A DNA stretch of 64,000 bases from Felis catus (Eukaryota): positions 82,834,001 to 82,898,000 of the forward strand of contig NC_058368.1 in the NCBI RefSeq assembly GCF_018350175.1, written 5' to 3'. This document shows, one piece after another, positions 31,431 through 64,000 of this stretch. The notes under the pieces are model-generated. The model saw only the letters and a list, made by a program, of their open reading frames with translations, ran no database searches and had not been told where the DNA came from. Position 1 is the first letter of the stretch; every line of letters begins with the position of its first letter. The position numbers and the translations under genes are program-made.

Positions 31431-31610
31431 TAACCTCTAACCTTTAGCCTACCCCCTAACCTGAACCCTGAACCTCGAGCCCAAACCCCAATCTGAAACC
31501 CTAGCCCTAAACCTTGAACTGCAAACCCAGATCTCTAACTCCAACCTGAATCTGAACCCTGAACCCAAAACCTGGACCTAAGCCCTGAACCTGGAAACCC
31601 TAACCCCTAG
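31431..31610 (-). repeat. Degenerate telomere-like hexamers (CCCTAA/CCCTGA on plus strand)
   Basis: cccctaacctgaaccctgaacc...aaccctagccctaaacc...aaaccctaacccctag. Confidence 0.7.
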
Positions 31611-32867: not shown

Positions 32868-33042
32868 GGGTTAGGCTTAGGGTTAGGGGTTAGGGTTAGG
32901 GTTAGGGGTTATGGTTATGGTAGGGCTAGGGTTAGGGGGTTAGGGTTAGGGTTAGGGTTAGTGTTCCAGTTAGGGTTAGGGTTAGGGTTAGGATTTAGGT
33001 TATCATTAGAATTTGGGTTAGGGTTAGTTTAGGGCTAGGATT
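32868..33042 (+). repeat. Interstitial telomeric sequence, (TTAGGG)n with variants
   Basis: Several runs of perfect TTAGGG plus TTAGGGG, TTATGG, TTAGGA variants. Confidence 0.95.
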
Positions 33043-37800: not shown

Positions 37801-40800
37801 TAGTCTTTGGGTCCCAAGGCCAGAGAACTCTATGGGCCAGTGGTTGGGTAGGCCTCAGGAATCGTCTTGGGCAGCTGCAGCTGGGCCTTGGAAATGACAT
37901 GGTGATGTTCCACGTTCTATGCCGAGTGATCATGCACCTTTTCTAGACCCCAGTTTGTGGTGTTGTCATATACTGTTATTGGGTCCCCATGGGTAGACAG
38001 CCTTATCTAGGGTTAGAGTTCGGTCCAGGGACATCACTAGGGCCTAGGCGACTCCAGTCTTGTGACCTTCCTCGAGGGCTGAAGTGAAGGCCCATGCGAT
38101 GGTGCAAAACAAGTGTAGGGTTTGGGTCGAGATAGTGTTGGGTTTTTTTGAGGGTTCTGCTTAGGGTTAGGGTTAGGGTTAGGTCCCAGAAGACTCCAGG
38201 TGCTGAACCCACAGCAGTGCAGGTGTCTCCCTGATGGGCTGACTTGCAGTCACAAGGGACGGTGCTTATCAGGATTAGTGTTTTTGTTCCAAGGCCAGAC
38301 AACTCTATGGGCCACTGTTCGGGTAGGCCTCAGGAATCCTCTTGGGCAGCTGTAGCTGGGCCTGGGAAATGACATGGTGATGTTCCAGGTTCTATGCTGA
38401 GTGATCCTGCACTGCCTCTGGATCCCAGGTGCGTGGTGTTGTCAGACTTTGGTATTGGGTCCCTATGGGGAGAGAGCCTTAGCTACGGTTAGGGTTTGGT
38501 CCAGGGATGTTGCCAGGGCCAAAGAGATTCCAGTTTTGTGGTCTCCCTTGAGGGCTTGAGTGAGGGCCCATGCGACGGTTCATGTCACGTATAGGATTAG
38601 GGTTTGAGATAGGGTTAGGTTTTGGTTGAGGGTTCTGGTTAGGGTTAGGGTTCTGTTTCTGGTTAGGTTAGGGTTTGAGTTAGGACCGAGGTGGTCCAGG
38701 TGCTGAACCCACAGCAGTGCAGTTGTGTCCCTGAAAGGCTGAGATGAGGGCACAAGGGGCGGTGCCGGTCACGATTAGTCTTTGGGTTCCAAGGCCAGAA
38801 ACCTCTATCGGCCAGTGGTCGGGTAGGCCTCAGGAATCGTCTTGGGCAGCTGTAGTGGGGCCTTCGAAACTGCATGGTGATGTTCCAGGTTCTATGCTGA
38901 GTGATCCTGCACTGCCTCTGGATCCCAGGTGCGTGGTGTTTCAGACTTTGGTATTGGGTCCCTATGGGGAGAGAGTCTTAGCTACAGTTAAGGTTAGGGC
39001 CAAGGACAATGCCAGGGCTGATGCGACTCCAGTCTATTCATATCTATTGAGGGCTGAAGTGAGGGCCCATGGTACAGTGCAGGTCAAGTGTGGGGTTAGG
39101 GTTCTAGTTAGGGATTGGTTTCAGTTGAGGTTTCTGGTTTGGTTTAGAGTTAAGGTCAGGGTTAGGGTTAGTGTTAGGGTTAGGTCCCAGGAGGGTCTAG
39201 GCGCTGACCCCACAACAGTTTTGATATCTCCCGGAAGGGCTCATTTGAGGGCACAAGCAAGGGTGCCAGTCAGGATTAGTCTTTGGGTTCCAAGGCCAGA
39301 CAACTCTATGGGCCACTGTTCAGGTAGGCGCAGGAATCATCTCGGGCAGCTGTAGCTGGGCCTGGGAAATGACATGGTGATGTTCCAGGTAATATGCCAG
39401 GTGATCCTGCACTGCTTCTGGACCAAAGGTGTTTGGTTTTGTCAGACTTTGGTATTGGGTCCCCATTGGAAGAGAGCATTAGCTAAAGTTAGGGTTAGGT
39501 CCAGGGCGTCACCAGGGCCAATGCGACTCCAGTCTCATGATCTCCCTCGAGGGCTGACATGAGGGTCATGTGATGGTGCGGGTCAGTGTAGGGTTTTGGT
39601 TGGAGATAGGGTTAAGATTCAGTTGAGGGTTATGGTGAAGGTTATTGTTAGGGACAGGGTTAGGTCCCAGGAGGTTCCAGGTGGTGTACCCACAGCTGTG
39701 CAGTTGTGTGCCTGAAGGTTTGAGTTGAGGGCACAAGGAAGGGTGCCAGTCAGGATTAGTTTTGGGTTCAAAGTCCCTCAACTCTCTGGGCCACTGGTCA
39801 GGTAGGCCTCAGGAATCCTTTGGGCAGCTGCAGCCGGGTTGGGAAACGACATGCTGATGTTCTAGGTTCAATGCCAGGTGATCCTGCACCGCTTCTGGAC
39901 CCCAGGCACGTGGTGTAGTCAGACTTTGGTATTGGGTCCCCATGGGGAGAGAGCCTTAGCTAGGGTTAGTGTTCAGTCCAGGGATGTCGCCAAGGCCAAA
40001 GCGACTCCAGTCTTGTGATCTCCCTCAACAGCTGAAGTGAAGGCCATGCGATGGTGCAGGTCAAGTGTAGGGTTAGTGTTCGAGATAGTGTTAGGTTTTG
40101 GTTGAGGGTTCTCAGGGTTATGTTTAGGATTAGGGTTAGGACCCAGGAGGTCCAGGCGGTCAACCCACAGCAGTGCAGTTGTCTCCCCAAAGGCCTGTGT
40201 TGAGGGCACAAGGGAGTCTGCCTTTTTGGATTAGTCTTTGTGTTCCAAGGCCACACAACCCTATGGGCCACTCTTCGCGTAGGCCTCATGTATCCTCTCG
40301 GGCAGCTGCAGCCGGACCTGGGAAATGACGTGGTGATGTTCCAGGTCTATGCTGATTGATCCTGTACTTCTTTTGGACTCCAGGTGCATGCTGTTCCAGG
40401 TTATGCCGAGTGATCATCCACCGCTTCTCGACCCCAGGCACCTGGTGATGTCAGACGTTGGTACTGGGTCCCCAAGGGGAGAGAGACTTAGATATGGTTG
40501 CAGTTCGGTCCAGGGACATCGCCAGGGCCAACGTGAGTCCAGTCTCATGATCTCCTTTGAGGGCTGAAGTGAGGGTTATGCAACAGTGTGTGTCATGTAA
40601 GTTTTTGGCTCGCTATAGGGTTAGGGTCCGGTTGAGGGTTCTCGTGAGTGTAGGGTTAGGGTTAGGGTTAGGGCCCAGGATACTCCAGGTGCTGAGCCCA
40701 CAGCAGTGCAGTTGTGTCCCCGAAGTGCTGAGTTGAGGGCACAAGTAGGGGTGCCGGTCAGGATTAGTATTTGGGTTCCAAGGCCAGTCAACTCTATGGG

Positions 40801-43800
40801 CCACTGGTCAGTAGGCCTCCGGGATCCTCTCGTGCAGCTGCAGCCTGGTCTTGGAAATGACATGGTGATGTTCCAGGTTGTATGCCAGGTGATCCTGCAC
40901 CTCTTCTGGACCCCAGGTGTGTTGTTGTCAGACTTTGTTATTGTTTCCCGTGGAGAGAGACTTAGCTATGTTTAGGGTTCGGTTCCAGGATGTCACCAGG
41001 GTGGAAGTGACTCCAGTCTCATGATCTCCCTCGAGGGCTGAAGGGAGGGCCCATGTGATGGTGCGGGTCAATTGTAGGTTAGGGTTAGAGATAGGGTTAG
41101 GTTTCGGTTGAGGGTTGTTGTTAGCGTTAAGTTTAGGGTTAGGATTAGGTCCCAGGAGGCTCCAGGCACTGAACCCACAGCAGTGCAGTTGTGTCCCCGA
41201 AGGGCTGAGTTGTGGGCACATGGGAGCATGCCAGTCAGGATTAGTCTAGGGTTCCAAGGCCAGACAACTCTATCGGTCACTGGTTGTGTAAGCCTCAGGA
41301 ATCCTCACGGGCAGCTGCAATCGGGCCTTCTAAATGACATGGTGATGTTCCAGGTTCTATACCGAGCAAACCTGCACCGCTTCTGGACAACAGGCGCGTG
41401 GTGTTGTCAGACTCTGGTATTGGGTCCCCATGGGGAGAGAGCCTTATGTAGGGTTAAGGTTAGGTCCAGGGACGTCGTCAGGGCTGAAGCAGCTCCAGCC
41501 TCCTGATCTCCCTCATGGGGTGAAGTGAGGACCCAAGGGACGTTGCGTGTCAAGTGTAGGGTTAGGGTTCAAGATAGGGTTACGTTTCGGTTGAGGGTTC
41601 TGGTTAGGGTTAGGTTTAGTGTTACTGTTAGGTCCCAGGATGCTCCAGGCACTGATCCCACAGCAGTGCAGTTGTGTCCCTGAAGGGAAGAGTGCAGGAC
41701 ACATGGGAGATGCCAGTCAGGATATGTCTTTGGGTTCCAAGGCCAGACAAGTCTATGGGCCACTGGTCGTGTATGCCTCAGGAATCCTCATGGGCAGCTG
41801 CAGCTGGGCCTTGGAAACGACATGGTGGTGTTCCAGGTTCTATGCCTAGTGATCCTGTACCGCTTGTGGACCCCAGGCGCATGGTCTATTCACAATTTAG
41901 TATTTGGTCCCCAAGGGGAGAGAGCCTTAGCTAGGATTATGGTTTGGTCCAGGGACGTCGCCAGGGCCAAAGCGACTCCAGTCTCATGATTTCTCTCGAA
42001 GCCTGAAGTGAGGGCCCATGGTACGGGGTGGCGTTAGGTTTCAGTTGAGGTTTCGGGTTAAGGTCAGGGTTAGGGTTATGTCCCAGGAGTCTCCAAGCGC
42101 TGAACCCATAGCAGTGCCGTTGTCTCCCAAAAGGGCTGAGTTGAGGGCACAAGGGAGGATGCTGGTCAGGATTAGTCTTTGGGATACAAGGCCAGACAAC
42201 TCATTGGGCCACTGGTCGCATAGACCTCAGGCATTCTCTTGGGCAGCGGCAGCTGGGCCTTGGAAATGACATGTTGTTGATCCAGGTTCTATGCCGTGTG
42301 ATCCTTCACCACGTCTGTTACTCAGGTGTGTGTTGTCAGACTTTTACATTGGGTTCCCTTGGGGAGAGAGCCTTATCTAAGCTTAGTGTTTGGGCCAGGG
42401 ACATCGCCAGGGCCGACGCCACTACAGGCTCGGATCTCCCTAAAGGCATGAAGTAAGGTCCCAGAAGGCAGTGCTGGTCATGTTTATGGTTAGGGTTTGA
42501 GATAGGGTTAGGTTTCAGTTGAGGGTTCTGGTTCAGGTTAGGTTTAGTGTTAGGGTTAGGTGCAGGAGTCTTGATGCTCTGAACCCACAGCAGTGCAGTT
42601 GTGTCCCTGAAGGTCTGAGTTTAGGGCACAAGGGAGGGTGCTGGTCAGGATTAGTCTTTGTGTTCCAAGGTCATTCTATTCTATGGGTCACTGGTCGGGT
42701 AGGCCTCTGGAATCCTCTCAGGCAGCTGCAGCCAGGCATGGGAAACAACCTGGTTATGTTCCAGCTTCTATGCCGAGTGATCCTGTACCGCTTCTGGACC
42801 CCAGGCGCGTGGTGTCAGACTCTGGTATTGGGTCCCCATGGGGAAAGAGACTTAGGGAGGGTTAAGGTTAGGTCCAGGGACGTCTCCAGGGCCAAAGCAA
42901 CTCCAGCCTCATGATCTCCCTCAAGGGGTGAAGTGAGGGCCCAAGTGATGGTGTGGGTCAAATGTAGGGTTAGGAATCAAGATAGGGTTACGTTTCGGTT
43001 CAGGATTCTGGTTAGGGTTAGGTTTAGTGTTAGTGTTAGGTCCCAGGAAGCTCCAGGCACTGAACCCACAACAGTGCAGTTGTCTCCCCTAAGGGCTGAG
43101 TTGAGGGCACAAGGGAGGGTGCCGGTCAGATTAGTCTTGGGTTCCAAGGCCAGACAACTCTATGGGCCACTGGTCGGCTATCCCTCAGGAATCCTCTCAG
43201 ACAGCTGCAGCTGGGCCTGGGTAACAACCTGGTGATGTTCCAGCTTCTATGCCTAGTGATCTTGCACTGCTTCTGGACCCCAGGCGCATGGTGTAGAAGA
43301 CTTTCGTATTGGGTCCCCATGGGGAGAGAGCCTTAGCTATGGATAGGGATCGGTCCAGGGACATCGCCAGGGCTGAAGTGACTCCTGTCTCGTGATCTCC
43401 CTAGAGGGCTGAAATTAGGGCCATGCCATGTTTCAGTTCAAGTTTAGGGTTTTGGTTCAAGATAGGGTTAGGTTTCGGTTGAGGGTTATGCTGAGATTTA
43501 GGGTTAGGGTCAGGATTAGGTCCCAGGAGACTCCAGGCACTGATTCCACTGCAATGCAGTTGTCTCCCCGAAGGGCTGAGTTGAGGGCACAAGCGCAGGT
43601 ACCGGTCATGATTAGTCTTTGGGTCCATGACCAGACAACCCTATGGGCCACTGGTCATGTACGTCTCAGGTATCCTCTCGGGCAGGTTCTGCCCATCCTT
43701 GGCAACAAACAGTGATGTACCAGGTTCCATGCTGAGTGATTCTACACCGCTTCTGGACCCCAGGCACGTGGTGTAGTCAGACTTTGGTTTTGGGTCCCCA

Positions 43801-44581
43801 AGTGAGAGATCTTTAGCTACGGTTATCTTTCTCTCCAGGGATGTCGCCAGGGCCAAAGTGACTCCAGTCTTGTGATCTCTCTTGAGGGCTGAAGTGAGGG
43901 CCCACGCGATGGCGTAGGGTCAATGTAGCGTTAGGGATCGAAATAGGGTTAGGTTTCGGTTGACGGTTCTCGTTAGGGTTTTGTTTAGTGTTAGGGTTAG
44001 GTACCAGGATGCTTCAGGCAGTGAAACCACAGCAGTCCAGTTGTCTCCCCGAAGGTCTCAGTTGGGGGCACAAGGGTGGTGTTGGTCAGGGTTAGTCTTT
44101 GGGTTCCATGGCCAGAAGCTCTATGGGCCACTGGACGGGTATGCCTCAGAAATCATCTCGGGCAGCTGCAGCCGGGCCTTGGAAACAACATGGTGATGTT
44201 CCAGGTAATATGCCAGGTGATCCTGCACCACTTATGAACCCCAGGCGCGTGGTGTCAGACCTTTGTGTTGGGTCCCCATGGGGAGAGACCCTTAGCTATG
44301 GTTAGGGTTGTGTCCAGGGACATTGTCAGGGCTGACACGACTCCAGTGTCCTGATGTCCCTTGAGGGCTGAAGTGAGGGCCCATGTTACGGCGCGGGTCC
44401 AGTGTAGTGTTAGGGTCGAGACAGGGTTATGTTTTGGTTGAGGGTTCTGGTTAGGGTTAAAGTTAGGGTGAGCGTCAGCGTTAGGTCCCAGGAGGCTCCA
44501 GGCATTGAATCCACAGCAGTGTATTTGTTTCCCCGAAGGTCTGAGTTGAGGGCACAAGGGAGGGTGCTGGTCAGTAGTCTT
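34821..44581 (+). repeat. FA-SAT satellite array, ~21 head-to-tail monomers
   Basis: Anchor ccacagcagtgcagttgtc occurs 20 times from ~35331 to ~44511, mean spacing ~483 bp (the known FA-SAT monomer length), plus one at ~34850; each monomer contains TTAGGG hexamers. Confidence 0.93.
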
Positions 44582-46227
44582 CTTTATAGCAAGTTCACGT
44601 TTACCTGAGTTGAATGGACTCCCTGAGTCTGCCCTCAGCTCTGACTGTGCTTGAGGCTGTTCTGGTTATAGTTAGGGGTAAAACCCGGAGAGAGATACGC
44701 AGGAAATTTCATGGCGGCTAAGGTGGTAGAGCATTGGAGAGAAAGTGTTCTGAACCGGGAAGAGAACAGTCTCATTTCTCCCAATCCACAAACATCTGCC
44801 ATCTTTGTTGTCTACCACTCTTCAGCTGCCTCCTCCCTTCATGGGGTGCTTATAAGCAGGCAGGTGAGCAGGGGCCATTCCCACTTGAGGGGGCCTTCCT
44901 GAGAGTTGCATCTTCCAGAATTTGATCATTGCAGGGCAACTTTTAGTAGAGTTTTGAACAAAAATGCAGTAGCCATTTGACCAGTATCACCCAGGCAGAA
45001 GCGCGGGGAATGTGAAAGAGTACTCAGCCCAGCACCACTGCCAGCAGAAAGTGACCTTCTGGTTGGACCTGATGCTGCCCGGAACCTACCAGGAGGGTAA
45101 AGAAGCTGATCTAGACTCAACACAACTCGAGCTTGTCCACTTTTGGGGCTTACACAACAGAGCTTTGAGGAAACAGCCTTTGTGTTGTAGCCTAGTACAC
45201 ACACATCTGAATGGGTATATATGTAGCCAAAAGAGAAGTTTCACAAAACACTTCTTACATGTGATGTCTTAGGATTTCTTTAAAATCGATCTTTGCCTCT
45301 ATAAAATGGATATCACAACCTAATAATCTGATTTCACAATCAATTAGGCAGTCACAGTAGCTAAACACTGTTCTGATGTATAATTTATCACGGCAGCATT
45401 GAGAGTTCTTTCCAAACGAACATCATACTTTTACCTAATATCACATCTTACTGTATTAGTTCTATCTGTAATGATTAAATTATCTGCTAATTGTGGAGAG
45501 TTATTGACACAGAGTGGTATAGGCATTTAAGGGAATCAATAATCTGTCCCTTGTTAAAGCATTACTAAACTGTGGTCGCAGAATTTCCATCTGTCGCCTC
45601 TGTCCCAGGGACTTCCTGCTATTTACCCAGGGATTCTTTGCTGGTCTCTGCTTCTGTGCTCTGGCTGAGTTTCTCTCTTTTCCCTGTCACTTCCTTGGGG
45701 CTTGATTTGCCCTTTGGGAATGGCTTCTGCCACGTTAAACTTCCCCTTCACCTCCTATATTTTCTCAACCTCTTTTGCTTTCTTAGGCATCTCTTCAACT
45801 GCTCTGGTTCTCTCTGCCTCTTCCAGTTGGTTCGTTCACATGAGCTAAATGATTGTGGACTCACTGTTAGTACAGTCACCACACATCATCACTGGGATGG
45901 CTCGGCCCATAGCAGCTTGTAAAAGCAGGGCCCTGGAAGAATGGGCAAACCAAGTAGGGATAAAGAAGTTACCCTTCGGTAATGGAAGACTCCATATTAC
46001 CTAAGAGGCAGTGTCTGTGCTAAACACTTTCCTGGAATGCTGGTCAAGTCAATTCTTGGCTTTAGCAGATAGTGCCCTGCAGTTAAGAGACAAAACATAC
46101 CTAATGCCTTGTTTCCCGAGATTATTTCAAACATGAAGCTAATACCTTGTATATAGAAGCTTTGGGTATTATGACAGTGGTAAAACACCTCGAAGTTCTC
46201 ATAACCTGTGACCTTTGTCCTTACTTG

Positions 46228-46970
46228 TCTTAGTATTCGGTTGCTACATAATAAATTACTACAAACTTATTACAGTAAAACCTTGGATTGCAAGCAACTC
46301 ATCCTGCAGGTGTTCTGCAAGACAAGCAAACATTTCTAATAAATCTTAAGTTGATAAACAAGTGATGTCTTGCAATACAAGTTGTACATGATGCTGAATG
46401 TCACGTGATCACAACTGAGCCAGTGGTTCTTGAAATTTGATTATACGAGTGCTTTGGATTACAAGAAGTTTTCTGGAATGAAGTATGCTCGCAAACCAAG
46501 GTTTTACTGTATATTTATTATCTTATAATTTTTATAGATGACAAGTCTGGGCATAGCATCTATGAGTCCTCTGCTCTGGGTCCCACAAAGCTGAAATCAG
46601 GAAGTTGGCTGGGTTGTGTCCTCATCTGTAGCTTGGGGTTCTGTAAGTTCATGCAGGTTGGCAGAGTTCAGTTCCTTGTCCTTGTCAGACTGAGGTGCCA
46701 GTTTCCTCATTGGCTGGTTGGTGGTTGCAGTCAGCTTCTGGAGACCACCCTCAGTCCAAGACATGTGTGCCTCTGACAACACAGTAGCTACTTCTTGAAG
46801 CCAGCAGGAGAGCCTTAAATAACATACAACCTTACATAATATTCTATAATCATGGGGGTGGCCATTTCATCGTATTCATAGGACCCCTTGCTAGGAAAGG
46901 GGATCGTGCACACCACATACACAAAGAGGTGAGAATCTTGGGGCCATCTTTGAAACCTGCTTGTCATATT
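46228..46970 (-). mobile_element. MaLR (MLT1-like) LTR interrupted by a MITE
   Basis: tgtcttagt...ttgctacataataaattactacaaactta / tttattatcttata...tcccacaaagctgaaatcagg...gaatcttggggccatctt. Confidence 0.65.
46273..46509. mobile_element. Tc1/mariner (Tigger-like) MITE, 237 bp
   Basis: 24-bp TIRs cagtaaaaccttggattgcaagca / tgctcgcaaaccaaggttttactg (2 mismatches), TA on both flanks. Confidence 0.9.
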
Positions 46971-47499
46971 ATCACATTTATCATGAATCCAGAGTAATTG
47001 CTGAGGATTCTCCTTACTGATGCATAATAGAAAAGAGTTTCATCTCTTTTCATTTACAATTAATTGTTTGGACTCCAACTACCCTAAAAGCAAGAAGTCC
47101 TTTTTCTCCCTTGAATGCTCCCCTCTTTCTCCACACAGATGTGCACATGCATACACACACGCACATGAGCACACACATATTGGTTACCCAGGACCATGGA
47201 GATTCTTGAGGAGGAGGGCACCACAGGGTCACTGTGGACGATGCTGTGCATCACATTAGCAGAGGGTGCTGTTTGGGCAGTGCTGGGTCCTTGCTGGTCC
47301 AGCCCTGGCCCAGATTCCCTACCCCCACTCCCAGCCCCCTGAACAGGGCAGTTCATCTCCTCTCATGCTCTATGCCTAACCACTCTTCTCCACAATGCAA
47401 CCACAGTCTCTGTGCGACTGGGACTGGAGGGGCAGCAGGTCCAGCCACCCCAGAGCCACACTCCTCCACCACTGAGGCCCTTGTGCTGGCCCAGGTCAT

Positions 47500-47845
47500 T
47501 GCCAGGCTGCATTTCTGTGTGGTCTCTGCTCAGATGTCACCTTCTCAGTGAGTCATCCCTGAACTCCTTGTTTAAACTTGTGTTATTATTTACTACCCCC
47601 TCTCCCTTGCTCTCAGCCTGCCAGCTTTTTATTTTTCACCACAGTGGGACTTAATGCCATCCAACACAGTTCATATATTTTTTTTATTTATTGTTTGCCT
47701 CCCTTTTCTGGATAGAAAGCTCCTTCTTGGCAGGGAATTCTGTCTGGCTTTTCATTATTCCATCCCTTGCACCCCATCCGAGGGTCCAGTGCAAAGCTAA
47801 GCTCCTTAGTAGCACCTTGGTGTGGTTTTTTAATGGATGCATAGA
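47500..47845 (+). mobile_element. L2 3'-end fragment
   Basis: tctctgctcagatgtcaccttctcagtgag...gaaagctccttcttggcagggaattctgtct. Confidence 0.55.
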
Positions 47846-47884
47846 TTATGAGAACCCATGGCATTTTTTAAATTTATTTTTAAA

Positions 47885-48313
47885 ATATTTTTTTTTAATT
47901 TTTTTTCAACGTTTTTATTTATTTTTGGGACAGAGAGAGACAGAGCATGAACGGGGGAGGGGCAGAGAGAGAGGGAGACACAGAATCGGAAACAGGCTCC
48001 AGGCTCTGAGCCATCAGCCAGAGCCTGATGCAGGGCTCAAACTCACGGACCGCGAGATCGTGACCTGGCTGAAGTCGGACGCTTAACCGACTGCGCCACC
48101 CAGGCGCCCCAAAATATTTATTTATTTTTGAGAGAGAGAGAGAGAGAGTGTGAGCGGGGGAGGGGCAGAGAGAGGGAGACACAGAATCAGAAGCGGACTC
48201 CTGGCTCTGAGCCGTCAGTGCAGAGCCCGACACGGGGCTCAAACCCACAAAGTGTCAGACTATGACCTGAGCCAAAGTCGGATGCTTAGCTGACGGAACC
48301 ACCCAGGCACCTC
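47885..48313 (-). mobile_element. Two CAN-SINEs, a young one (~47890-48110) inserted in the tail of the other
   Basis: Inner TSD aaaatattt; outer TSD taaatttattttt. Confidence 0.88.
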
Positions 48314-48856
48314 TAAATTTATTTTTTAATTTAAGTATAATTTATATACAGTGTCACATTAGCTTCAGATGTACAATATAATGATTCAGCAATTCTATAC
48401 ATTACTCAGTGCTCATGAGAGTAAGTGCACTCTTAATCTCCTTCACTTGTTTCACTCTTCCCCACCTACCTCCCCTCTGGGAACTGCCAGTTTATTGTTT
48501 GTATTTAAGAGTCTGTGGATTTGTTTGCTTCTTTTTTCCTTCGATCAGCAGCATTTTTAGGCACACACTTCAGTGTTCTACTATGTGTTGATTGATTAAG
48601 GCAAGTTAAACAGATCACCTTATGTCGCTGATTGACGGAAGCATCTCATGGAAATCATAACAAGTTCTATCTAGTACATAGAAGTCCGTGTTTGTGGATT
48701 ATGGGAGGACTGGATGTGAAAAGATCTGTATCATATGGAGAATGAGGTACTGGTGGTGGTGATGACTGGGCAGGAGTCTCTCAGATCAGTTTTGTCCTTG
48801 AAGTGATAGATTTAGCAGCAGTTGGGTGCTGGGTATTTAAAAAGATAAACACAAGA

Positions 48857-49085
48857 GGGCTCCTAGGTGGCTCACTCAGTTAAGTGTCCAACTCTGGGTT
48901 TTGGCTCAGGTCATGATCTCTCCATTCGGGAGTTTGAGCCCTGCATTGGGCACTGTGTTGATGGCATGGAGCCTACTTGGTATTCTCTGTTGCCTTCTCT
49001 CTCTGCCCCTCCCCTGCTCACAGTCTCCCTCTCTCTCTCTCTCTCTCAGAAATAAACATTTCAAAAATAATAATAATAAAATAAA
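48857..49085 (+). mobile_element. CAN-SINE
   Basis: gggctcctaggtggctcactcagttaag head, (CT)n, (AAT)n tail; TSD aaaaagata. Confidence 0.85.
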
Positions 49086-50224
49086 AAGATACTCAAGCCC
49101 TGGGAGCCAACCAAGGAGAAACGGCATAGGAACTCAGGTCTGCTGAGTTTCACTATAACTCCTCTCTGTCTTAACTAATCTTCACTAATACTTCCCAGGG
49201 AGCTATTTTCTACACAATTATTCATAAAGCAAGCCATTTTTAAAAGAAGAAAGTTGGCAGGAACCTAGATGACAACTATATGATTATCCAACATTGCTGA
49301 GAAACAGTCCACCTTCTCCCTTTTCCCCACCTATGGCCACATGGACTCAAGTAACTGCAGTGACAGTTTCTCTGTACATACCAAGGTGCAGAACCAAGGG
49401 GCTTCAGCTTTCATAGTCATCTCTCTTTTCCAAAAAAAGGGGGTGGCAGGCATCTTAAAGGAAGGTGGCTTGACTCCTTGGAGCCTGCACTGAGTCTGAA
49501 GGGCCTTGACTGGGCAGCTCTTCTAGGGGAGGAATAGCCCCTGAGCCCCACCCACACCTCATAGGGCCCCAAGCCTCAGACACCCTGGAGGGGAGGGGGG
49601 CAGTGAGACAAGGACAGTCCCGTCAGCGGAGTATATAAGGAGGCAGCACTGTAAAGCGGTCCTGCCCTCCCACCCCTTTCACTGGGAAACTAAAAAAACT
49701 CAGTTATGGGGAAACTGAGGCTTGCAGAGGTCCAGTAACTTGCCAGAGTCCCATAGCCATTAAGTGGCAAGACCAGAACTAAACTTGCTAATCTGTCTGA
49801 CTTCATAAGCTCTGCTTTGAACCTCAGGGGACTTGCCAGTGGCGTTCTCCCAGCTTTGGACCATCATCAGGGCTCGAGTGCTGAGCAGGGTCTACAGCAT
49901 GTAGACACGGGTCTGTTGAACTTCCTTCCCATTGCAGCGCTGGCGTGACTCATGCTGGCCTTGGTTCACAGGCCCCACCAGAAGGGAACAATTGTGATTC
50001 AGCATCTGGAGATGGTAGGGGCGCTTCGAATCACACTGATCTGCACTGGCCAGATCCATCTTTGCACCTTCTGTTTGGGCCACCAGACAGCACTCAGTTC
50101 TGGTTGGTGAAGTGCAGTGGTGGCGTTTCTGCCCGTTGCCCTGAATTGGCCTGGACCTCATGACTGGTTCGGCCTTCCTTCCGACCCAGGACACTGACTA
50201 GCCTCTGCCCCCTCTCTCCTACAG

Positions 50225-50302
50225 ATGCCGCCCTTACTAGGACTGCTGTGGCTCCAGGTGCTGTGTGCGGGCCCTCTCCATACAGAGGCTGTGGTATTTT
50301 TG
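50225..50302 (+). pseudogene. VOPP1: Isolated VOPP1 internal exon (78 bp) with in-frame stop; unprocessed gene fragment
   Basis: Frame from 50226 reads CRPY*DCCGSRCCVRALSIQRLWYF(W), matching VOPP1 CRSYEDCCGSRCCVRALSIQRLWYFW; acceptor cctctctcctacAG and donor GTaggt intact; TAG at 50238-50240. Confidence 0.9.
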
Positions 50303-51764
50303 GTAGGTTGCAACCCCTCTTCGTCTCAAATGACTTGGTCTACCACCCACCCCACAAAGGCTCTGCCAGCCTGAGTATTGTCATGTCACCTTCACCTGAG
50401 GTCTTGGTCTCGGGGACAGTCTCAGTCAAGCACACAGGTATGTTCAGGTTACCTCGCCAAGTTTGCAGAAAGCTTGTTCCCTTTTTCACAGGCGGTGGCT
50501 GGAAAGAAGAGTTTGTCTTTGGGAGATAGGCTGGAAGACTGTTCTCCAGAAGTTGCTGTGCCAGTTTCTGAGATGGAGCTGAGGATGACTGTCTGAAAGA
50601 CTCAGAATTAGCCAACTTGTCATCAAGTCTGTGCTGCCTGGAAGTCATTCCCACTCATGGTGTCAGCTGAGTAGATAACTTTCAGGACAGACAGCCTGCA
50701 TCCTTGTCCCTCTTCCAGCTCTCCTAAGGGAAGTCTGTAAAATTCTACCTTGAGAGGGGATGAGGGAGTGACGCTGATGAAGCATCCTGGAAGGGGAGAG
50801 GTGCAGTTTCCATTAATAACAGGATTCCCCAGGGGATTGCCCGCTTTAGAGGGTGCCTGCTTGGGGGTGTGCCTAAAAATGTATTTGGGTCTATAGTTGA
50901 GAGACACTGCTTCAGATCTCCGGGACGGCAGGGTGTGAGTGGGAGAGGATGTGCCTAAAACCAAAAGAGCATTTCCTGCACCCACAAACCCTCTCCTCTG
51001 CTCCACTGCAATGGTAGTGTCATCCAGGCAAGCTCCACAAAGAGTTAAGACAAGCTTCTCTATGACTTTTAGATTCCGAAATCACTGACTTCCGAAGACT
51101 TTAAGACTTTTACTAATAAGCATGTTGCAGCAGCCACTTGAAATTTTTTGTGAAGTTTTGTCTTTCCCTTCTGACAACTGTTCCCAGGTTTGATTAGGGA
51201 AAATGCCAGTAAGTGGGATTCCACATGTCACGTTGTCTTTGATAAGATAGCCTGCTTCCATATCACCATCACCACCTCCTTGATGGGGCATTGGCCATTT
51301 GGGGGCTCAACTCACCTGTCACATCGGGCCCTGGCCTGGCCCCCCTTAGGGTTGGCTTGGACATCCCCTGTTTTGATGTCACTACCTCTGGCAAGCCCTT
51401 CTGAACCAAGTGCCATATTGGTGCCTAAAACTCTATAATAGAAGGTAAATTTTTTTAGCCCAAGACCTTCTGAATGTAAACATCTCTGAGTACACTTCAA
51501 GTGAAGTGGGCCAGTACCAAAGCAGGGACTGGGAGGGCCAGGACAGTTGGTATTCCAGAGCTTTGCCTAGTTTCATGCATGCTTTCCCTCAGAACTTTCC
51601 TCCATGGGGCCTTGTGGTAGAAGGAGACAGGACTGTCTGGGACAAGAGTCCTGAAATGCTTAGGAAGTTATGCCAGGTTAGCCTGAAGCACCAGATGTTC
51701 CTAAAAATGAAATGTTCCTAAAAAAAAAAACAACTTGTCAAGGTTTAGGTATCAGGTGATTAAA

Positions 51765-51966
51765 AAAACTTTTTATTACATTTATTTATTTTTGAGAGAC
51801 CAAGAGAGACAGAATTCAAGTGGGGGATGGGCAGAGAGAGGGAGACAGGATCTGAAGCTCTGAGATGTCAGCACAGAGCCCAATGTGGGGCTTGAACCCA
51901 TGAACTGTGAGATCATGACCTGAGCCGAAGTCAGACACTCAACCAACTGAGCCACTCAGGCACCCC
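51765..51966 (-). mobile_element. CAN-SINE
   Basis: Typical body; TSD atcaggtgatt. Confidence 0.88.
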
Positions 51967-53879
51967 ATCAGGTGATTTTTTTTAAAAAATTGAGAGTGCA
52001 GGAGAAACATAAGGGCCTAGAAGCTAGAGCATCTTCTGTTGGCTTTCCCAGGAAACTTTACCTGAGCCAGCAGCCAAGTGCCTTTTAGAGGCCAGCCAGG
52101 GTCACTTATCAGAGTTGGGACACATTGGTAAGACAGTATGCAGTGAATGAGCAGGATCCCTGCACAGAGACATCTTATGAGTGCCATCAAACGGAGTGCC
52201 AGATGACAGAAGAGGAGATTCTGACAACAGGTTCTAAAGTGGGGGTACATCCAGAGAACAGCTGGAGATGTGTCTGAGGTGCCCCAGCTAAAGTCAAAGG
52301 ATGCTTGCGTCCAGCTCCTATGCATTCCTTCCCTCAGTAAACATGAAGTGTCTTGTACTCACCAGAGCCCCATGGAGAGGCACTTAGGGTAGTCAGACTC
52401 CTAAAAGAAGCAGGTGTCTAAATAGGTAATTCTATGGGGAGAGTTTTAAACTGGTGTCCTGGAAACACAGGATGGAGCCTCTGATCCCAGAAAAGTTGGG
52501 AAAAGCTGCAAAGCTTCTGACTGGGTGTCAGAGAGGGTGTTCTGTTCAAAGAGACCAGCATGTTGATGGGACAAGGAGGTAAGAAGAACCAACAAGGTGA
52601 GAGAATGGCAGGAGAGTCATGTGGGAGGCAGGTGTTTGTGGGGGAAGCATAGGAGATGGGAATATGGAGCTGGACATAGAGGGAAGGAAGGGCTACTCTC
52701 CAACCTTGGTCCCACCTCGTTTTTAAGGACTTCTGTCTCCTTACCATAGAACAAAGGTCTGGAGGAGAATGCTTCAAAAGTCCCCCCAGTTCTAAAATCT
52801 TGAGTAATCTTTGACCAACGCAGTCTGAATGAAATTTTCATTGTTTGAAGAACTAGACCAGTAGCACCCTTGAGTAGAGCTGGAAAGTACACTATGAAGG
52901 AGTAAAACCCCAGCAGGGTTATTATGTGCGTGAGCCCTGCCGCTGGGGGCTCCCACCCACCTGGGTCTGCATCATGGTTCACCTGATGCCTGGGACGTGC
53001 ATTCAGGGAGAGAGCTGCTGTGCTGAGTGCTGGGGGAGGGCAAGAAGGGATTGAAAAAACACATAGAATTGAAGAAACCAGATTACTTTGGATAATAGAA
53101 AAGGCATGAACTTCCTCCCTTCATCCCTGCAAAGCTTCCAAAACCTGGTCAGCAATGAAAGGGAACATCTAGAGCACAATTACCCTTTAGTGCTTCAAAG
53201 AACAGCTTTTCTTACTATACTCTTCTTTTTCCCCTTCCTCTCTTTCCTTGTTCTATAAGCTCATTTTCTTGACCCCTTGTCAGTTTCTCTCTTAAAATAA
53301 GTTCTCTCACCAATATTTCAATGAGGAATGAATCTGATGATTGATACAGAAGCTGGTAGTCAGTCTCCCACATTTTGACTTGCTCTGCCCATGCTTGGTA
53401 CTTACTTGGTCTCTGTTAGTCTAAGGTGCAATATCAGATGAGGTGCCTCAATATCATTCATATCTAGCTAGGAGAAGAATAATTCCATGTGATGGTGGAA
53501 CCAACACTGTGGCCTGTCCCAAGGAAGAGACCCCTATCTCAGATTTCTTGTGCATTTTTCAAAACCAGGGAGCCCATCTCTTGGGAGTGAGTGGAAGCAC
53601 TGTTTGAAAAACGCTATAAATCCTGTATATAAACCCTTCCGCACAGTGAGCCTCTCTGTGCTCAGATACTTACAATTCAGCCCACGGTTGAATGTAAGAT
53701 TACCATTGAGTTCATCCCAGGGAAATTAGTCTTAAGAGCCGAAAGAGTTCCCTTTGTGATTCCAGCATCTCGGTGCAGAGATGTCAGGCCCTTGCACAGT
53801 GGGATTCTTTGATATCCCAAGACAGCAGCCCCCTCGGCCTCTTCCCCGTCGGCGGCCCACAGCAATCCTCTGGGAACAA

Positions 53880-55547
53880 GGCCGAAGGGACTCCGGTCTC
53901 GTGATTTCCCTCGAGGGCTGAAGTTAGGGCCCATGCGACGGGGCGGCTCAAGTGGAGCTTTAGGTTTCGAGGCCGGCTTAGTTTTCAGTGGAGGGATCTG
54001 GTTCGGGGTAAGGTTAGGGTTAGGGTTAGGTCCAAGGAGGCTCCAGGGGCCGAACCCACAGCAGGGCAATGGTCTCCCCAAAGGGCTTAGTTGAGGACAC
54101 AATGGAGGGTGCCGCTCATGATCAGACTATGGCTGCCAAGGACACATAATTCGATGGGCCGGGCAGCTACAGCCCGGCCTGTGCAACGACATGCTGAGCT
54201 TCCTGGTTCCATGGCTAGTGAGCTTACACTGCTTCTGGACCCCAGGTGCGTGGTGTTGTCAGGCTTTGAGATTGGGTCTCTATGGGGAGGGAGGCTAGCT
54301 AGGGTAAGGGTTCAGTCCAGGGACATCACCAGGGCCGAAGCGACTCCAGTCTCGTGATCTGGGGTCGAGGGCTCAAGTGAGGGCTTATGCGACGGGGCGG
54401 CTCAAGTAGAGGGTTTGGGCTCGAGGCCGGCTGAGGTTTCAGTGGAGGGTTCCGGCATGGGGTAAAGATAGGGTTATGGTTAGGTCCCAGGAGGCTCCAG
54501 GCGCCGAACCCCAAAGCAGGGCAGTGGTCCCCCGAAGGGCTGAGGTGAGGGCACAAGGGAGGGTACCTCTCAGGATCAGTCTTTGGCTGCCACGGCCACA
54601 CACGTCGATTGGCCCCTGGTTGAGGAGGCCTCAGGAATCCTCTCGGGTAGCTGCAGCCCGGCCTGGGAAACGACGTGTTGCGCTCCAGGTCCCATGCCGA
54701 GTGAGCCTGCTCTGCTTGTGGACCCCAAGCGCGTCGTGTAGTCCGATTTTCTTATAGGGGCCCCATGGGGAGAGCGCCTTAGCTAGGGTTAGGGTTCGGT
54801 CCAGAGACGTCGCCAGGGATGAAGCGACTCCGGTCTCGTGATCTACCTCAAGGGGTGAAGTGAGGGCTCATGCGACAGGGCGTCTCAAGTGTACGTGGTG
54901 GAATCGAGGCCGGCTTAGGTTTCGGTGGAGGGTCCCGGTTTGATGTTGGGTTAGGGTTAGAGTTAGGACCCAGGAGGCTCCAGGCGCCGAACCCACAGCA
55001 GGGCAGTGGTCTGCCCGAAGGGCTGAGTTGAGGGCACAAGGGAAGCTGCCGGTCAGGATCAGTCTTTTGCTGCCAAGGACACACACGTCGAAGGAACCCT
55101 GTCCGGGAGGCCTCAAGAATCCTCTCGGGCAGTTGCAGCCGTGCCTCGGAAACCACATGCTCAGCTTCCAGGTTCCATGCCGAGTGAGCCTGCACCGCTT
55201 GTGAAGCCCAGGGGTGTGGCGTTGTCAGGTTTAGGGATTGGGTCCCTTGGGGAGAGTGCCTTAGCTAGGGGTAGGTTTCGGTTCAGGGACGTAGCCAGAA
55301 CCGAAGCGACTCCGGCCTTGCGATCTACCACGAGGGCTGAAATGAGGGCTCATGCGACGGGGCGGCTCAAGTGTAGGGTTAGGGTTCGAGACCGGCTTAG
55401 GTTTCGGTGGAGGGGACGGTTCCTGGCGGGCGGTTAGGGTTAGGGTTAGGTCCCGGGAGGCTACAGGCTATGAACCCACAGCAGGGCAGTGGTCTCCGCG
55501 AAGGGCTGAGTTGAGGGCACAAAGGAGGGTGCCGATCAGGGGTCTTT
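53880..55547 (+). repeat. Second FA-SAT array (~3.5 monomers), CpG-rich variant
   Basis: Anchor ccacagcagggcagtggtc at ~54056, 54511, 54993, 55476 (spacing ~455, 482, 483). Confidence 0.93.
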
Positions 55548-56610
55548 AAATTACATTTAAAGTAATTAATGATATTTAAGTAATTATTATCTTTTTGTCA
55601 ATTTTTTTTTTACTGTTTTTTAGTTCCATTTTTCCTTTATTTTTCTCAGTGTTTTATTTTGTGATTTTTGTTTTTGGAATGGTATACCTTGCTTCCTTTC
55701 TCTTTGTCTAGCTAGGTTATTTATGTTAAGAAACTCAGGCATTTGAGATGGTCTTACCCAAAAGGTACATTTTTGTTCCTTTCTTGCTATTTTCAATGAA
55801 TTTTTGTCTTAATTGTGATAAGCACCAGATATTGTATGGAAATGAGTCACTATATTATACAGCTGAAACTAATTTGTACTGTATGCTAACTAACTGGAAT
55901 TTTAATAAAAACATAAAAAAAGAATGCTGACAACAGACCAAGTCAGTATTTATACCACATTCATCATTCAATACTTTCAGATTGATCACATGAATGAATC
56001 AACTTTATAATCTTATTTGGTATCTACAGATTTAGAGTTCACTATTTAGCAATAAGTGCGACCAAGTTATTAATCTTAAAAAATGAATTTTTGTCTTAAG
56101 TTTTCACAATTATGTATATGATATTTGTTGGTTGGAAGCTATTTTAATTTAATCTGTTTCACATTTAATCAACCTGCTTGAATTTGTAGTCTTATGTCAT
56201 TTGCCAAGTTGGGAAATTTTTAGTCACTATTAATTTTGTTATTTTTCATCTCTCTGTACTTCTCCTCACCACACTTTGATAAAATAAATATATATCCCAT
56301 GGTTTATGAGGATACATTCATTTTCTTTATTTTTTAATTGGGAAATTTCCATTGCTATTTTTTAAAGTACACTTTTTGTGTACTTTCTACTTTGCTGTTC
56401 AGTCCATCCATGAGATTTTTATGTGGTTAGTGCATTTTTTGACTATAAGATTTACATGTTGGGTTTTTTTTCATATATTTTCTTATGCTAAAAATTTCTA
56501 TTTACTTGTTAAATTGTTGCTAATACATTTGTTTCAAGGGTGTTTATAATTTTTAGTGAAAATTTTATAAAGGCTGTTAATAAATTTTAATTAAATAATT
56601 TTAGCATTTT
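55548..56610. mobile_element. Decayed AT-rich L1 fragments, including a short plus-strand L1 3' end at ~55828-55921
   Basis: tcactatattatacagctgaaactaatttgtactgtatgctaactaactggaattttaataaaaac is a carnivore L1 3' terminus. Confidence 0.55.
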
Positions 56611-59600
56611 AGAGGGGGGGTGCCAGCAAGATGGCAGAGGAGTACCCTAAACTCACCCTGTCTCATGTTTACAACTAGATATCACTCACATCCAAATCAA
56701 CAAACTGGAGAGTGATATGAAGACTGGCAGAACAGACCACAACTAAATATAGGGAAGAAGTTGTATGGAAAAGTTAGGAAGGACAGAAAAGGTGCTTGCT
56801 TGGAAGTGGCCCCCAGAAGGGATAGACGAAAGGGGAAAGTACCAGGGAGCCCACATACGGAAAATGAATTCTTATAATTCCTGGCCTTGAAAACCAGAAG
56901 GGCTGAGCTCCATGAGTTTGTATAACTGGTGGATCTTGCAGCCTGGAGCTTTAACAACCAACTCAGCCTTGGGAAAGCTGGCAGGGCAAGTGATAACAGG
57001 GTCCCTACCCTTAAAGAGTACAAGTAGATGCAACAGAGAAGCCACACTTTGTACAATGGGGGGGGGGGGGAAGATATTTATACTGAATTTGGGGCATGTT
57101 GGGGTAATTCTCTGAGAACAAAGGATCTGTTCCATTTTCTTCCCTTGTCCCCCAGCATAAACACAGAACCACTTTCAGAGGCAAGATTGCACTGACACTT
57201 GCTACATAGCTTTCTTGCAGTGTGCCCCACCCAGGAGTTCTCCTAAAGACCACCCACAACAAGACTACTGACCTCTGCCCAGGACTCAGCAAAAATTTTG
57301 TTATTGCTGCCCATGACAACCAAGCTGCTGCCTCTGTGGATTGCAACCCCATGACCATTGTGTTTCTGGGGATCCTGCTTAGGACTTCTGGGTTGGTGCC
57401 AATTTTGCTAATGCTGTGTGCACATCACTCACCTGCCATCTGTCCCACCAGCCATTCTCCTTGCCCAGCTGCTGCACACACAGACACAAGTCACCATGCC
57501 AAGCCACCAGGCACACAGATGCTCTGCTCAATAACCATATGCACAGACACCATGTGCCCCTGGCCACCATACTACTGGGAATCAACCTAGGACTAGTGGC
57601 TTTGCAAATCTTACTAATGGTGCATGTGTGCCCTGTCTAGCTGGCTAGTGCACAGAAGCCAACAACCCCTAGCCCTTGATTGTGATGCACACAGAGCCCC
57701 AGGCCACCACCATATTTCAGGAGAGCCAGCCCAGGACTAGCGGCTCAAGGCAAAGTTTGGTAATGCTGTGCATATACCCTGTTCAGCCTCTCCCCACAAT
57801 GTTTCACACCCCCTACCACCACCACTACCCTTTTGTTTGGCCACCCAGCTGTGGGGGATTCAGTTTAGGATTAACATCACAGTGCAAATTTTACTAACAG
57901 CATCTTCTGCAGTCATACTCCTTCAGAATTGCTCTGCCTGGATCTCATTAAGATCACAGAGAGCAAGCACAGACCACAGCAGGCAAAGACTCTGTTGCAG
58001 ATGTCTGCACTGAATAAAAGATACAATAGCGAAAAATAAGAAACACACATAGGAGTCTCCCCTGAAGTGTCAGATTCTAATGAACACAGGACAATGCACT
58101 ACAGAACACTACAGGACCTCCTCTTCATAAAAAATACTTTCAAAAGCAGATAATGCAGCTAATTTTCCTAGTACACAGAAATACACACACAGAGGTAGAC
58201 AAAAGGAAGGGACAGAGAAATATGTCCCAAATAAAAGAACAGCACAAAATCACAGTAGGAGATCTGAAATGAAAAAAATAAATAAGTAATATAACTGATA
58301 CAGAATTTAAAGTAACAATTATAAAACATATTCATATGACTTCAGAAAATGATGGAAATAGCAGTAAGAACTTTGACAAAGAGTTAAAAAAATAAAAATC
58401 TGAGATGAAGAGCTCAATAAATGATATTAAAAGTACAACAGATTGAATAAATAGTAGGATATAGGAAGCAGAGGAATATATCAAGGGCCTGAAGAATAGA
58501 GTAATGGAAAACAAACTGAATAGGTGAGAGAAAGACAAATAGTGCATAATGAGATTAACCTCAGAGAAATCAGTGACTTGATCAAGCGTAATAATATTTT
58601 CATTATAAGGATTCAAGAAGGAAGAGAGAGACAAAATGTGTGTGTGTTGGGGGTGGGGGACAAAAGGGGGAAGACAGAAAATGTATTTGAAGAAATAATG
58701 GCTGAAAACGTCCTGAATGTGGGGAAGGAAATAGATATCCAGATATAAGAGGTACAGAGATCCTCTAACAAATTCAATCCAATGAGGTCCACACCAAGAC
58801 ACATAGCAATTAAAATGGCAAAAAAAGTAATAAAAAATGTTAAAGGTTGAAAGAGAAAATAAGAAAATTACATAGAAAGGATACCTCATAAGGCTATCAG
58901 TTGATTTTTCAGCAGAAACTTTTAGAGTCAGAAGGGAGTGGCATGGTGTATTCAAAGGTATAAAAGGGAAAAATCTCCATCCAAAAAGAATATACACAGC
59001 AAGGCTATATTTAATAATAGAAGGAAAGATAAAGAATTTATTTGACAAACAATTTAAAACAATTCATGACCATTAAACTAACCCTATAAGAAATGTTAAT
59101 GAGGAATCTGTGAGTGGAAAAAAATAACTAAGAATAAGAAAAATAGGAAAGACAAAATAAAAAGATATAAAAGATGACACGAAATATCTGAAACATGGAA
59201 GAGAGAAGAGTAAAGAATGAGCTCAAAAATAAGGGACCATCAGCTTCATATAGACTACTCTATGCAGAAGATGTTATATATAAACTGAATGGTAATTATA
59301 AACCAAAAAATAGTAATAGATATGGAAAACAAAGAGCGTGTAATCCAAGTATATCATGGAAGAAAATAGGCAAACCATGAAAGAGAGAAAAAGAAGAAAG
59401 TTTCAGAGAAAAACAAAATAAATAAAACCTTACAAAACATTGCAGTGAATACATATCTATCAATAATTGCTTTAAATGCAAATGAACAAAATAGTCAAAA
59501 GAAATAGGTAATAAAGTGGATAAAAATAGAATACTCATCTATACACTACCTATAAGAGATTCATTTAAGACCTAAAGACAACTACAGATTGAGAGTGAGG

Positions 59601-62600: not shown

Positions 62601-63092
62601 GGACTACTTCTTACACCATATACAAAAGTAAACTCAAAATGGATTAATGACCTAAGTGTGAGACCTGAAACCATAAAAATCTTAGAAGAGAACACAGACG
62701 GTAGTTTCTCACAGACATATTTCTAGATATGTCCCCTGAGACAAGAGAAATAAGAACAAAAATAAACTATGGACTATGAAAAATTAAACAAAACAAAACA
62801 ACAAACTTCAGAACAGCAAAGTAAAAATGAATAAAAAAAGCAACGTACTGAATGGAAGAAGACATGTGCAAATGACATACCTGATAAAAAGGTTGGAATC
62901 CAAAATATGTAAAGAACTGTTACAAATCAAAACCCCCAAAATAATCCAATTAAAAATGGGCTGAAAAATGAACAGATATTTCTCCAAGGAAGACAGCTAG
63001 GTGACCAACAGGCCCATGTAAAGATGCTCACAGTACTCAACAGGGAAATGCAAATCAAAACTACAATGTGATTTCACTTCAAACCTGTAATA
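56611..63092 (+). mobile_element. Long decayed carnivore L1 (5' UTR, ORF1, most of ORF2; 3' end missing)
   Basis: caagatggc start; ORF1 remnants (LREISDLIKRNNIFIIRI, FEEIMAEN); endonuclease (NTIIVEDFNTPLTLMERSS); ORF2 ([30 protein letters not shown]); many stops and frameshifts. Confidence 0.9.
61374..61620 (+). mobile_element. CAN-SINE inserted in L1 ORF2
   Basis: ggggcacctgggtggctcag head; TSD aaaa(a/g)cacttgac. Confidence 0.88.
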
Positions 63093-63354
63093 ATCTATTA
63101 GTTTCAGCAGTAGAATTCAGTGATTCATCACTGACATAAATCACATATTTAACATTTCATTTGCTGTTCTTTTGTGTATTTTTGTATTTTTTGTAAAGAT
63201 ATTTAACTCATTGATTTTAAATAAAATTTAAATTATATATATATGCCCCAGTCAAGTGCTTTTCCTAAATCTATTGAGATGATCTCTCTCTCTATATATA
63301 TACATACACACACACAAATTTGAACCAAAAGTATACATTTGTAAATACAATATA

Positions 63355-63540
63355 GGGGTGTCTGGTGGCTCAGTATGCTAGGTGTCTGAGTTCATTTCAG
63401 CTCAGTTCATAATCTCTTGGACTGTGTCCTCACGTTCTGCATCATGCTTTGTGCTGATACTGTGGAGCCAGCTTGGGATTCTCTCTCTCCCTCTCTCTCT
63501 GACTTTCACCCACTTGCTCTCTCTCAAAGTAAGTTGAAAA
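63355..63540 (+). mobile_element. Diverged CAN-SINE
   Basis: ggggtgtctggtggctcag...ggagccagcttgggattctctctctccc. Confidence 0.75.
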
Positions 63541-63837
63541 GATAAATATAATATATCATAATAAATATATAACATATAATTTAGTATACAAATATATTTA
63601 TAATATATATTATATATACATATATATATACACCCACACACATGTTCACAACTGCTGTCAATACCCATCACCCATTTAACACTGCAAACCTTGCCTCCAA
63701 AAACTCTTAGCTTGTTCTCTATAGTTAGTCTGTTTCATGATTTGCTTCTAAAATAAATAAATAAATAAATAAACAACCAACCAACAGATATGGACTTCTA
63801 ATTCTGGCATCTAAAAACAAGTTAGAGAATTTTTATT

Positions 63838-64000
63838 CCTTTTTAAATTTATTTATTTAAATTCAAGTTTCTTGACATACAGTGTAGTATTGGTTTCAGG
63901 ATTAAAACCCAGTGATTCATCACTTACATATCCCCAAAATCACCCTCCCTAATGCCCATCACCCATTTAGCCCATCCCCTCACATCCCCTCTAGCAATGC
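63838..64000 (-). mobile_element. Carnivore L1 3' end (continues beyond window)
   Basis: T-rich tail then catacagtgtagtattggtttcagg...agtgattcatcacttaca...gcccatcacccattt. Confidence 0.75.

Follow-up and report, generated by a model that had tools for sequence, protein, structure and literature searches.

We report that a 9.3-kb block within a 64,000-nucleotide stretch of the domestic cat genome (Felis catus; assembly GCF_018350175.1, contig NC_058368.1, positions 82,834,001 to 82,898,000; hereafter the window) is a DNA-level duplicate of intron 2–exon 3–intron 3 of VOPP1, that it lies directly between two arrays of the satellite FA-SAT, and that it is a single copy beside its donor in this assembly. 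The window is located at ~82.88 Mb of contig C1 of the 2.43-Gb genome searched (C2, C11, C61, and so on denote other contigs). We consider it probable that a break in subtelomeric FA-SAT was patched by a copy of VOPP1 DNA, which was then frozen when the chromosome end became internal; the DNA-level duplication alone is more secure than this whole account.

A duplicate of VOPP1 introns and exon 3

An 801-base probe (49900–50700) matched two places in the genome, the window on C1 and contig C2 at 70.24 Mb. At the latter, the donor gene is intact, with exons 2–5 in order; its name is based on donor exon 4, which was 100% identical to an F. catus VOPP1 entry in a homologue search. Window positions 44579–53874 are collinear with C2:70,245,961–70,236,304 (donor stretch, 70.236–70.246 Mb). 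The parts of the block and of the donor gene are the following:

44579..50224, plus strand: duplicate of the final 6.0 kb of VOPP1 intron 2 (donor C2:70,245,961-70,239,940)
50225..50302, plus strand: copy of VOPP1 exon 3 (77/78 identity, AG/GT kept, GAG→TAG at 50238-50240)
50303..53874, plus strand: duplicate of the initial 3.56 kb of VOPP1 intron 3 (donor to C2:70,236,304)
46273..46509, no strand assigned: TA-flanked inverted-repeat element resembling a miniature inverted-repeat transposable element (MITE), common to copy and donor, multicopy at ~85%
C2:70,267,482-411: donor VOPP1 exon 2
C2:70,239,939-862: donor VOPP1 exon 3
from C2:70,234,354: donor VOPP1 exon 4
from C2:70,210,531: donor VOPP1 exon 5

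An earlier note, made from the letters of the window alone, had interpreted the block as a duplicative transposition at the DNA level and not as a retrocopy, and this interpretation held: 6.0 kb and 3.56 kb of donor intron are kept, the block is collinear with the donor, and neither a poly(A) tract at the block nor a target-site duplication of at least 5 bases within a few bases of the junctions was found. On two points fixed beforehand, the flanks of the exon align to both VOPP1 introns, and the window does not hold the only VOPP1 copy, given the intact donor on C2. The block limits proposed in that note (44582–53879) are real, but donor homology refines them to 44579–53874; of its repeat labels, those for the short interspersed elements (SINEs) and the MITE-like element stood, while MLT and L2 were judged by eye only. 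In the donor, ~21 kb separate the duplicated piece from exon 2, and ~1.95 kb separate it from exon 4. The block is not the remnant of a larger VOPP1 duplication, as 3.4 kb of donor flank including exon 4 matched only itself and one 72% repeat, and 1.5 kb of flank on the other side matched itself alone. Insertion of circular DNA, with swapped halves, was ruled out by the collinearity.

The exon copy is 78 bp long, with intact splice sites (AG at 50223–50224, GT at 50303–50304) and a TAG at 50238–50240, exactly where the earlier note had placed them, and its translation is CRPY*DCCGSRCCVRALSIQRLWYF(W). The stop codon is the sole difference from the donor exon, in which the codon is GAG (Glu); among 120 homologues fetched, Glu occupies the equivalent position in 76 of the 76 that match the motif. 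That the peptide belongs to VOPP1 was likewise borne out, by the identity of donor exon 4 and the order of exons 2–5, as was the absence of neighboring VOPP1 exons: when four VOPP1 proteins were compared with the 364 kb around the window (tblastn), this exon was the only match, found with three of the four, the fourth lacking exon 3. In the library version used, exons 3 and 4 had no Pfam match; PF11669 (WBP-1) matched 15 places genome-wide, none of them at VOPP1 or in the window, and an Atlas search with exon 4 gave only matches of 0.80 or less.

Copy and donor differ at 6.43% of 8,460 sites (Kimura two-parameter distance 6.76%; identity 93.6%), computed without the SINE cluster and gap edges; divergence at non-CpG sites is 5.26 ± 0.48%, and along the block it ranges between 4% and 10% per 500 columns. 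The copy carries a young SINE (47888..48110, minus strand) that is absent from the donor, and the donor intron carries two young nested SINEs (C2:70,242,223-70,242,646), ~70 bases from the copy's SINE site. These three private SINEs are 97–98% like their closest fetched relatives, the shared ones 77–89%. Divergence of 6.4% together with separate SINE gains in both copies shows that the block is old and not an assembly echo of the donor, which was also rejected on the even spread of the differences and the lack of any N in 364 kb. As differences with GC in the donor and AT in the copy outnumber the reverse (299 versus 188; p = 6 × 10⁻⁷), the copy has probably changed faster than the donor; losses of CpG, too, are more numerous in the copy (55 versus 37).

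At assumed rates of 1.1, 1.6, and 2.2 × 10⁻⁹ per year, the duplication dates to 31, 21, and 15 million years (Myr) ago, respectively, or 24, 16, and 12 Myr ago when only non-CpG sites are considered; the donor's share of the change alone corresponds to 12–24 Myr. The event would therewith be 12–30 Myr old. Living cats diversified ~11–15 Myr ago, and the block is probably older than their radiation, hence predicted in all of them. The two higher rates are derived from published values of 2.22 × 10⁻⁹ per year and 0.81 × 10⁻⁸ per five-year generation (10.1101/2024.04.06.587788). The same source states a rate of 1.1 × 10⁻⁹ per generation, which was applied here per year.

Satellite arrays, junctions and adjoining segments

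Satellite borders the block directly at both ends, as the earlier note had it, the left array running to 44581 and the right one starting near 53877:

34826..44581, plus strand: left FA-SAT array, ~20 monomers, CpG-poor (L-type), ending at monomer position ~100
44579..44581, plus strand: left junction, CTT common to satellite and donor, with a 3-base deletion 7 bases upstream in the satellite
53875..53879, plus strand: right junction, 2–5 bases of non-donor origin
53877..55540, plus strand: right FA-SAT array, ~3.4 monomers (1.67 kb), CpG-rich (R-type), from position ~332 to ~100
55540..64000, plus strand, on to window-equivalent 68385 (C1:82,902,385): second duplicated segment, copy of C1:83,676,983-83,691,036

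Both arrays consist of a ~483-bp tandem monomer with TTAGGG-type motifs and are kin to arrays at cat chromosome ends. FA-SAT has been described as a mainly telomeric satellite with a 483-bp period, telomeric motifs, ~90% uniformity, and a GC content of 64%, which makes up ~2% of the cat genome (PMC5714208). The window arrays share its period and motifs but are less uniform (within-array monomer identity 78% on the left, 80% on the right) and poorer in GC (49–61%). On 32 diagnostic columns, chosen with the help of 22 monomers from beyond the window, each of the 19 scored left monomers was L-type (22–30 columns) and each of the three full right monomers R-type (24–29 columns), a switch of subfamily that rules out simple insertion into one uniform array. 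The best match elsewhere reached 79% for the left array (best 16 of 377 candidates scored) and 83% for the right (best 8 of 353). In contrast to these decayed arrays, one on C61 scores uniformly. Judged by their monomers, the window arrays look cut off from homogenization. Fluorescence in situ hybridization did not detect FA-SAT on chromosome A1 (PMC5714208), with which a small, decayed array at this site fits. In a survey of 18 array regions, the 32 columns split FA-SAT into two types, the uniform arrays being of the CpG-rich one. Many short FA-SAT arrays also have end positions (monomer 264, 273–274) and flanks in common, so that they spread as cassettes.

Across the block, the satellite phase changes from ~100 on the left to ~332 on the right. 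Either at least ~230 bases of satellite would have been lost, or two different arrays would have been joined. Microhomology amounts to 0–3 bp; the 3-base overlap on the left and the 2–5 non-donor bases on the right are, at this age, compatible with end joining and with template switching alike. We propose that a double-strand break fell in a subtelomeric FA-SAT tract and that its repair, by end joining or by microhomology-driven template switching, brought in a 9.3-kb copy of VOPP1 DNA, with 3 bases of microhomology used at the left end and an almost blunt join at the right. The chromosome end would later have been internalized, which would have isolated the block from the exchange by which other FA-SAT spacers propagate, so that it never spread; the exon would be a passenger without protein function, and its TAG a neutral later change. 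Movement by FA-SAT-mediated exchange, as the earlier note had suggested, found no support. A monomer profile search of the 100 kb around the donor gave 0 FA-SAT matches; the donor could therefore not have recombined through FA-SAT, as the homologous repeat that satellite-mediated non-allelic homologous recombination would need is missing at its breakpoints, and the flanking arrays are decayed and belong to two subfamilies.

Beyond the right array, the second segment is a ~13-kb direct duplicate; its donor lies in an olfactory-receptor region at a distance of 787 kb and continues into L1-like DNA on either side (by eye). Divergence between the two is 1.3% next to the satellite and grows to 6.0% at the opposite end (mean 2.9%), a gradient that suggests gene conversion. 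A third segment of 20 kb (C1:82,902,907-82,923,125) contains a 113-bp tandem repeat and is ~5% (4.8–5.2%) diverged from C11:38.12-38.14 Mb and C1:88.95-88.97 Mb, with weaker matches on C47, on C2, and at the beginning of C1; inverted pieces of the 113-bp repeat lie between the second and third segments. The two transitions from satellite to donor DNA, at 44581 and 55540, both fall at monomer position ~100, and in both, 3 bases are missing ahead of GTCTT. This match could come from fragility of the site, from a single serial event, or from coincidence.

A serial event is the alternative that survives best, but we regard it as unlikely. One broken satellite end would have copied VOPP1, R-type FA-SAT, olfactory-cluster, and pericentromeric DNA in a series of template switches, perhaps during a chromosome fusion. 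The likeness of the two junctions speaks for it, all the more as none of the other array ends in the 18 regions was placed at ~100 (the nearest being 85 and 121), and so do the 6.0% divergence at the far end of segment 2 and the inverted repeat pieces next to it. However, the mean of segment 2, its value beside the satellite, and the divergence of segment 3 are all below the 6.4% of the VOPP1 block, so that equal ages would require later gene conversion, and the phase match is one post hoc coincidence, expected by chance in roughly 4% of cases by our estimate.

Copy number and the state of the exon copy

The earlier note had considered the block possibly multicopy, which the genome search does not support. 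Probes 49900–50700 and 52000–53900 returned two candidates each, the donor and the copy, and probe 44560–47800 gave two full-length matches (again donor and copy) plus 38 matches of ~250 bases to the embedded element among the best 40 of 3,307 candidates scored. As a control, a 4.7-kb FA-SAT spacer (C61:150,300-155,000) gave at least 28 near-full matches of 95–100% identity on 17 contigs (self included), a lower bound given that the best 32 of 19,409 candidates were scored. The search thus does detect multicopy spacers. Unplaced satellite contigs were included in it and answered the control. In this assembly, the VOPP1 block is a single copy beside its donor.

The full form of that idea, in which satellite exchange would have distributed the block as a multicopy spacer to many FA-SAT arrays and the assembly would lack most of the copies, is accordingly improbable, and clearly more so than a serial origin. 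Cat FA-SAT arrays do hold multicopy spacers, with shared flanks, as the control demonstrates, and a satellite that makes up ~2% of the genome (PMC5714208) far exceeds the arrays seen, so that much of it must be unassembled. Against this stand the three probes, which found donor and copy only although the unplaced satellite contigs were searched, and the decay of the flanking arrays, which have no close relatives among the scored candidates. The control spacer is itself a conspicuous structure: its full 11.4 kb lies between two FA-SAT arrays, and copies recur approximately every 15 kb on C61. It looks like the cat counterpart of the segmental duplication spacers in ape subterminal caps. A DUX-type macrosatellite was considered for it and rejected, as no homeobox motif was present in six regions and the available part of PMC13558733 lent no support.

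The exon copy is well preserved, with a single difference from the donor in 50201–50308, a level that only 3 of the 117 78-column windows reach. Since selection acts on the donor exon, changes have to be judged on the branch of the copy alone, where the probability of at most one change is 0.16–0.28 for the exon and 0.06–0.14 for the 108 bases. Once donor-exon constraint is allowed for, preservation is not significant, and selection on the exon copy was rejected. That the exon is kept by splicing into a non-coding transcript, started from the satellite or from the CpG island of a CHAMP1-like gene in the window, is therefore hard to credit: the intact splice sites and the sense orientation of the exon to the right-pointing strand would suit such a role, but the branch probabilities do not call for it, and no partner exon is known. 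Least credible of all is the capture of RNA, in which a piece of unspliced VOPP1 pre-mRNA would have been reverse-transcribed into the break, for although the block lies wholly inside the VOPP1 transcription unit, its 9.3 kb are unspliced and show neither poly(A) nor a target duplication, and the adjacent duplicated segments consist mostly of repeats and bear no trace of a transcript origin.

A probable former chromosome end and its counterparts

To the left of the arrays, the window contains a CHAMP1-like exon and further sequence of the kind found at chromosome ends:

11666..14182, minus strand: long exon of a CHAMP1-like gene, 838-aa open frame, weak C2H2 Pfam matches only
31340..31610 (approximate), minus strand: decayed (CCCTAA)n-type tract, 70–74% match to telomeric tracts at contig ends
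31775..32866, plus strand: subtelomere-type DNA, 75–76% like other chromosome ends
32867-33043 and 34344-34752, plus strand: two decayed TTAGGG tracts with very decayed satellite monomers between them

The subtelomere-type DNA matches C47 at 127.70 of 127.84 Mb, C39 at 61.73 of 61.99 Mb, and C11 at 205.33 of 205.37 Mb, and also C13 and C31. The TTAGGG strand points right, and the CCCTAA-type tract at 31.4 kb faces away from the tract at 32.9 kb; a head-to-head TTAGGG/CCCTAA join was not seen, and counts per 10 kb revealed no CCCTAA-rich tract in the 220 kb to the right of the window. CDC16-like and UPF3A-like exons lie left of the window, on the strand opposite to the CHAMP1-like exon. These three names are tentative, being taken from sequence motifs. 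In humans, CHAMP1, UPF3A, and CDC16 are the last genes of 13q and are all on one strand. The strand of the CHAMP1-like exon and the orientation of the CCCTAA-type tract make a local inversion at the old end likely. To the right of the third segment follow AT-rich DNA and then, from C1:83.08 Mb, genes that appear olfactory-receptor-like by sequence motifs, so that the VOPP1 block is one tile of a patchwork between 13q34-type and olfactory-receptor genes.

The simplest reading is that the site is likely a buried chromosome end at or near the junction of the felid A1p and A1q arms. Painting tables list the human-13 segment (A1p) together with C1q, and A1q as separate, in pinnipeds (PMC4731086), and three fusions, given by ancestral numbers, are assigned to the felid branch (PMC3238119). 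Only tentatively can one go further and see in the site the preserved scar of the fusion that built A1, in which several copied segments in a row, the VOPP1 piece among them, would have repaired a broken, FA-SAT-capped end.

Several points weigh against the account of a subtelomeric break, VOPP1 patch, and later internalization. The 3-base microhomology is possible by chance, and old junctions erode, so that the repair pathway is not fixed. The genome search scores the best candidates only, and satellite is under-assembled. The date depends on assumed rates, with a copy that apparently changes faster. Short FA-SAT arrays are also internal, for example at C11:38.16 Mb and C16:81.5 Mb, and the satellite alone is therefore no proof of a former end. 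The opposite strand of the CHAMP1-like exon and the outward CCCTAA-type tract imply that inversions have reworked the site, and the neighboring gene names come from sequence motifs.

Segmental duplications are defined by a length of more than 1 kb and an identity of more than 90%. The VOPP1 block, with 9.3 kb, 93.6% identity, intron–exon structure, and an intact donor on another chromosome, lies within this definition, and its acceptor is repeat-rich and adjoins other duplicons, one from C1:83.68 Mb and one common with C11:38.1 Mb and C1:88.9 Mb. In the features tested, it agrees with an interchromosomal duplicon whose acceptor is subtelomeric or pericentromeric. For human duplicons of these regions, a two-step acceptor model has been put forward, and the subtelomeric ones are described as mostly made by non-homologous end joining (PMC8254307, where the ALD duplications are also cited). 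Like them, the cat block is a gene piece with introns that went from an interstitial donor to a repeat-rich acceptor and forms a mosaic with other duplicons; unlike them, it represents step one only, with no secondary copies in the assembly, its acceptor is FA-SAT, and it is small (9.3 kb).

With the segmental duplication spacers of ape subterminal caps, the block shares the placement of euchromatic DNA between subterminal satellite arrays, but those spacers are 32–34 kb long, number 400–700 per genome, and undergo ongoing ectopic exchange (PMC12154684, PMC3371704), whereas the block is 9.3 kb, single in this assembly, and flanked by decayed arrays. It thus lacks the copy-number feature, and the better cat analogue is the multicopy C61 spacer. 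The fusion site of human chromosome 2 likewise holds several old segmental duplications at a former end, one of them related to a subterminal spacer (10.1101/2024.12.12.628057). In contrast to that site, the telomere-like tracts in the cat face apart, the site looks older, and its identity as a fusion point is our inference. A literature search, which did not cover the 2023 paper on single-haplotype cat genomes or its supplements, found no earlier report of a VOPP1 insert in FA-SAT, and neither FA-SAT nor segmental duplications are mentioned in the available part of PMC11216403.

As a gene event, the duplication is minor, a dead exon in one duplicate, and its value is that of a marker. As the exon copy differs from the donor at the stop codon only, reads from it can be placed on VOPP1 exon 3 by mistake and then mimic a nonsense variant, which is of practical concern. 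More widely, multicopy spacers alternate with FA-SAT arrays in the cat, in a manner close to that of ape subterminal caps. Satellite arrays are undatable from their own monomers, whereas a unique 9-kb insert with a known donor is datable; if present across felids, the block provides a date for the array around it, possibly for the A1p/A1q junction as well, and marks the place at which an old end is buried. Should the site indeed be a fusion scar, the block would date the A1 fusion, both FA-SAT subfamilies would have capped chromosome ends before living cats diversified, and a spacer would have been arrested at copy one while its sister spacers expanded as in ape caps.

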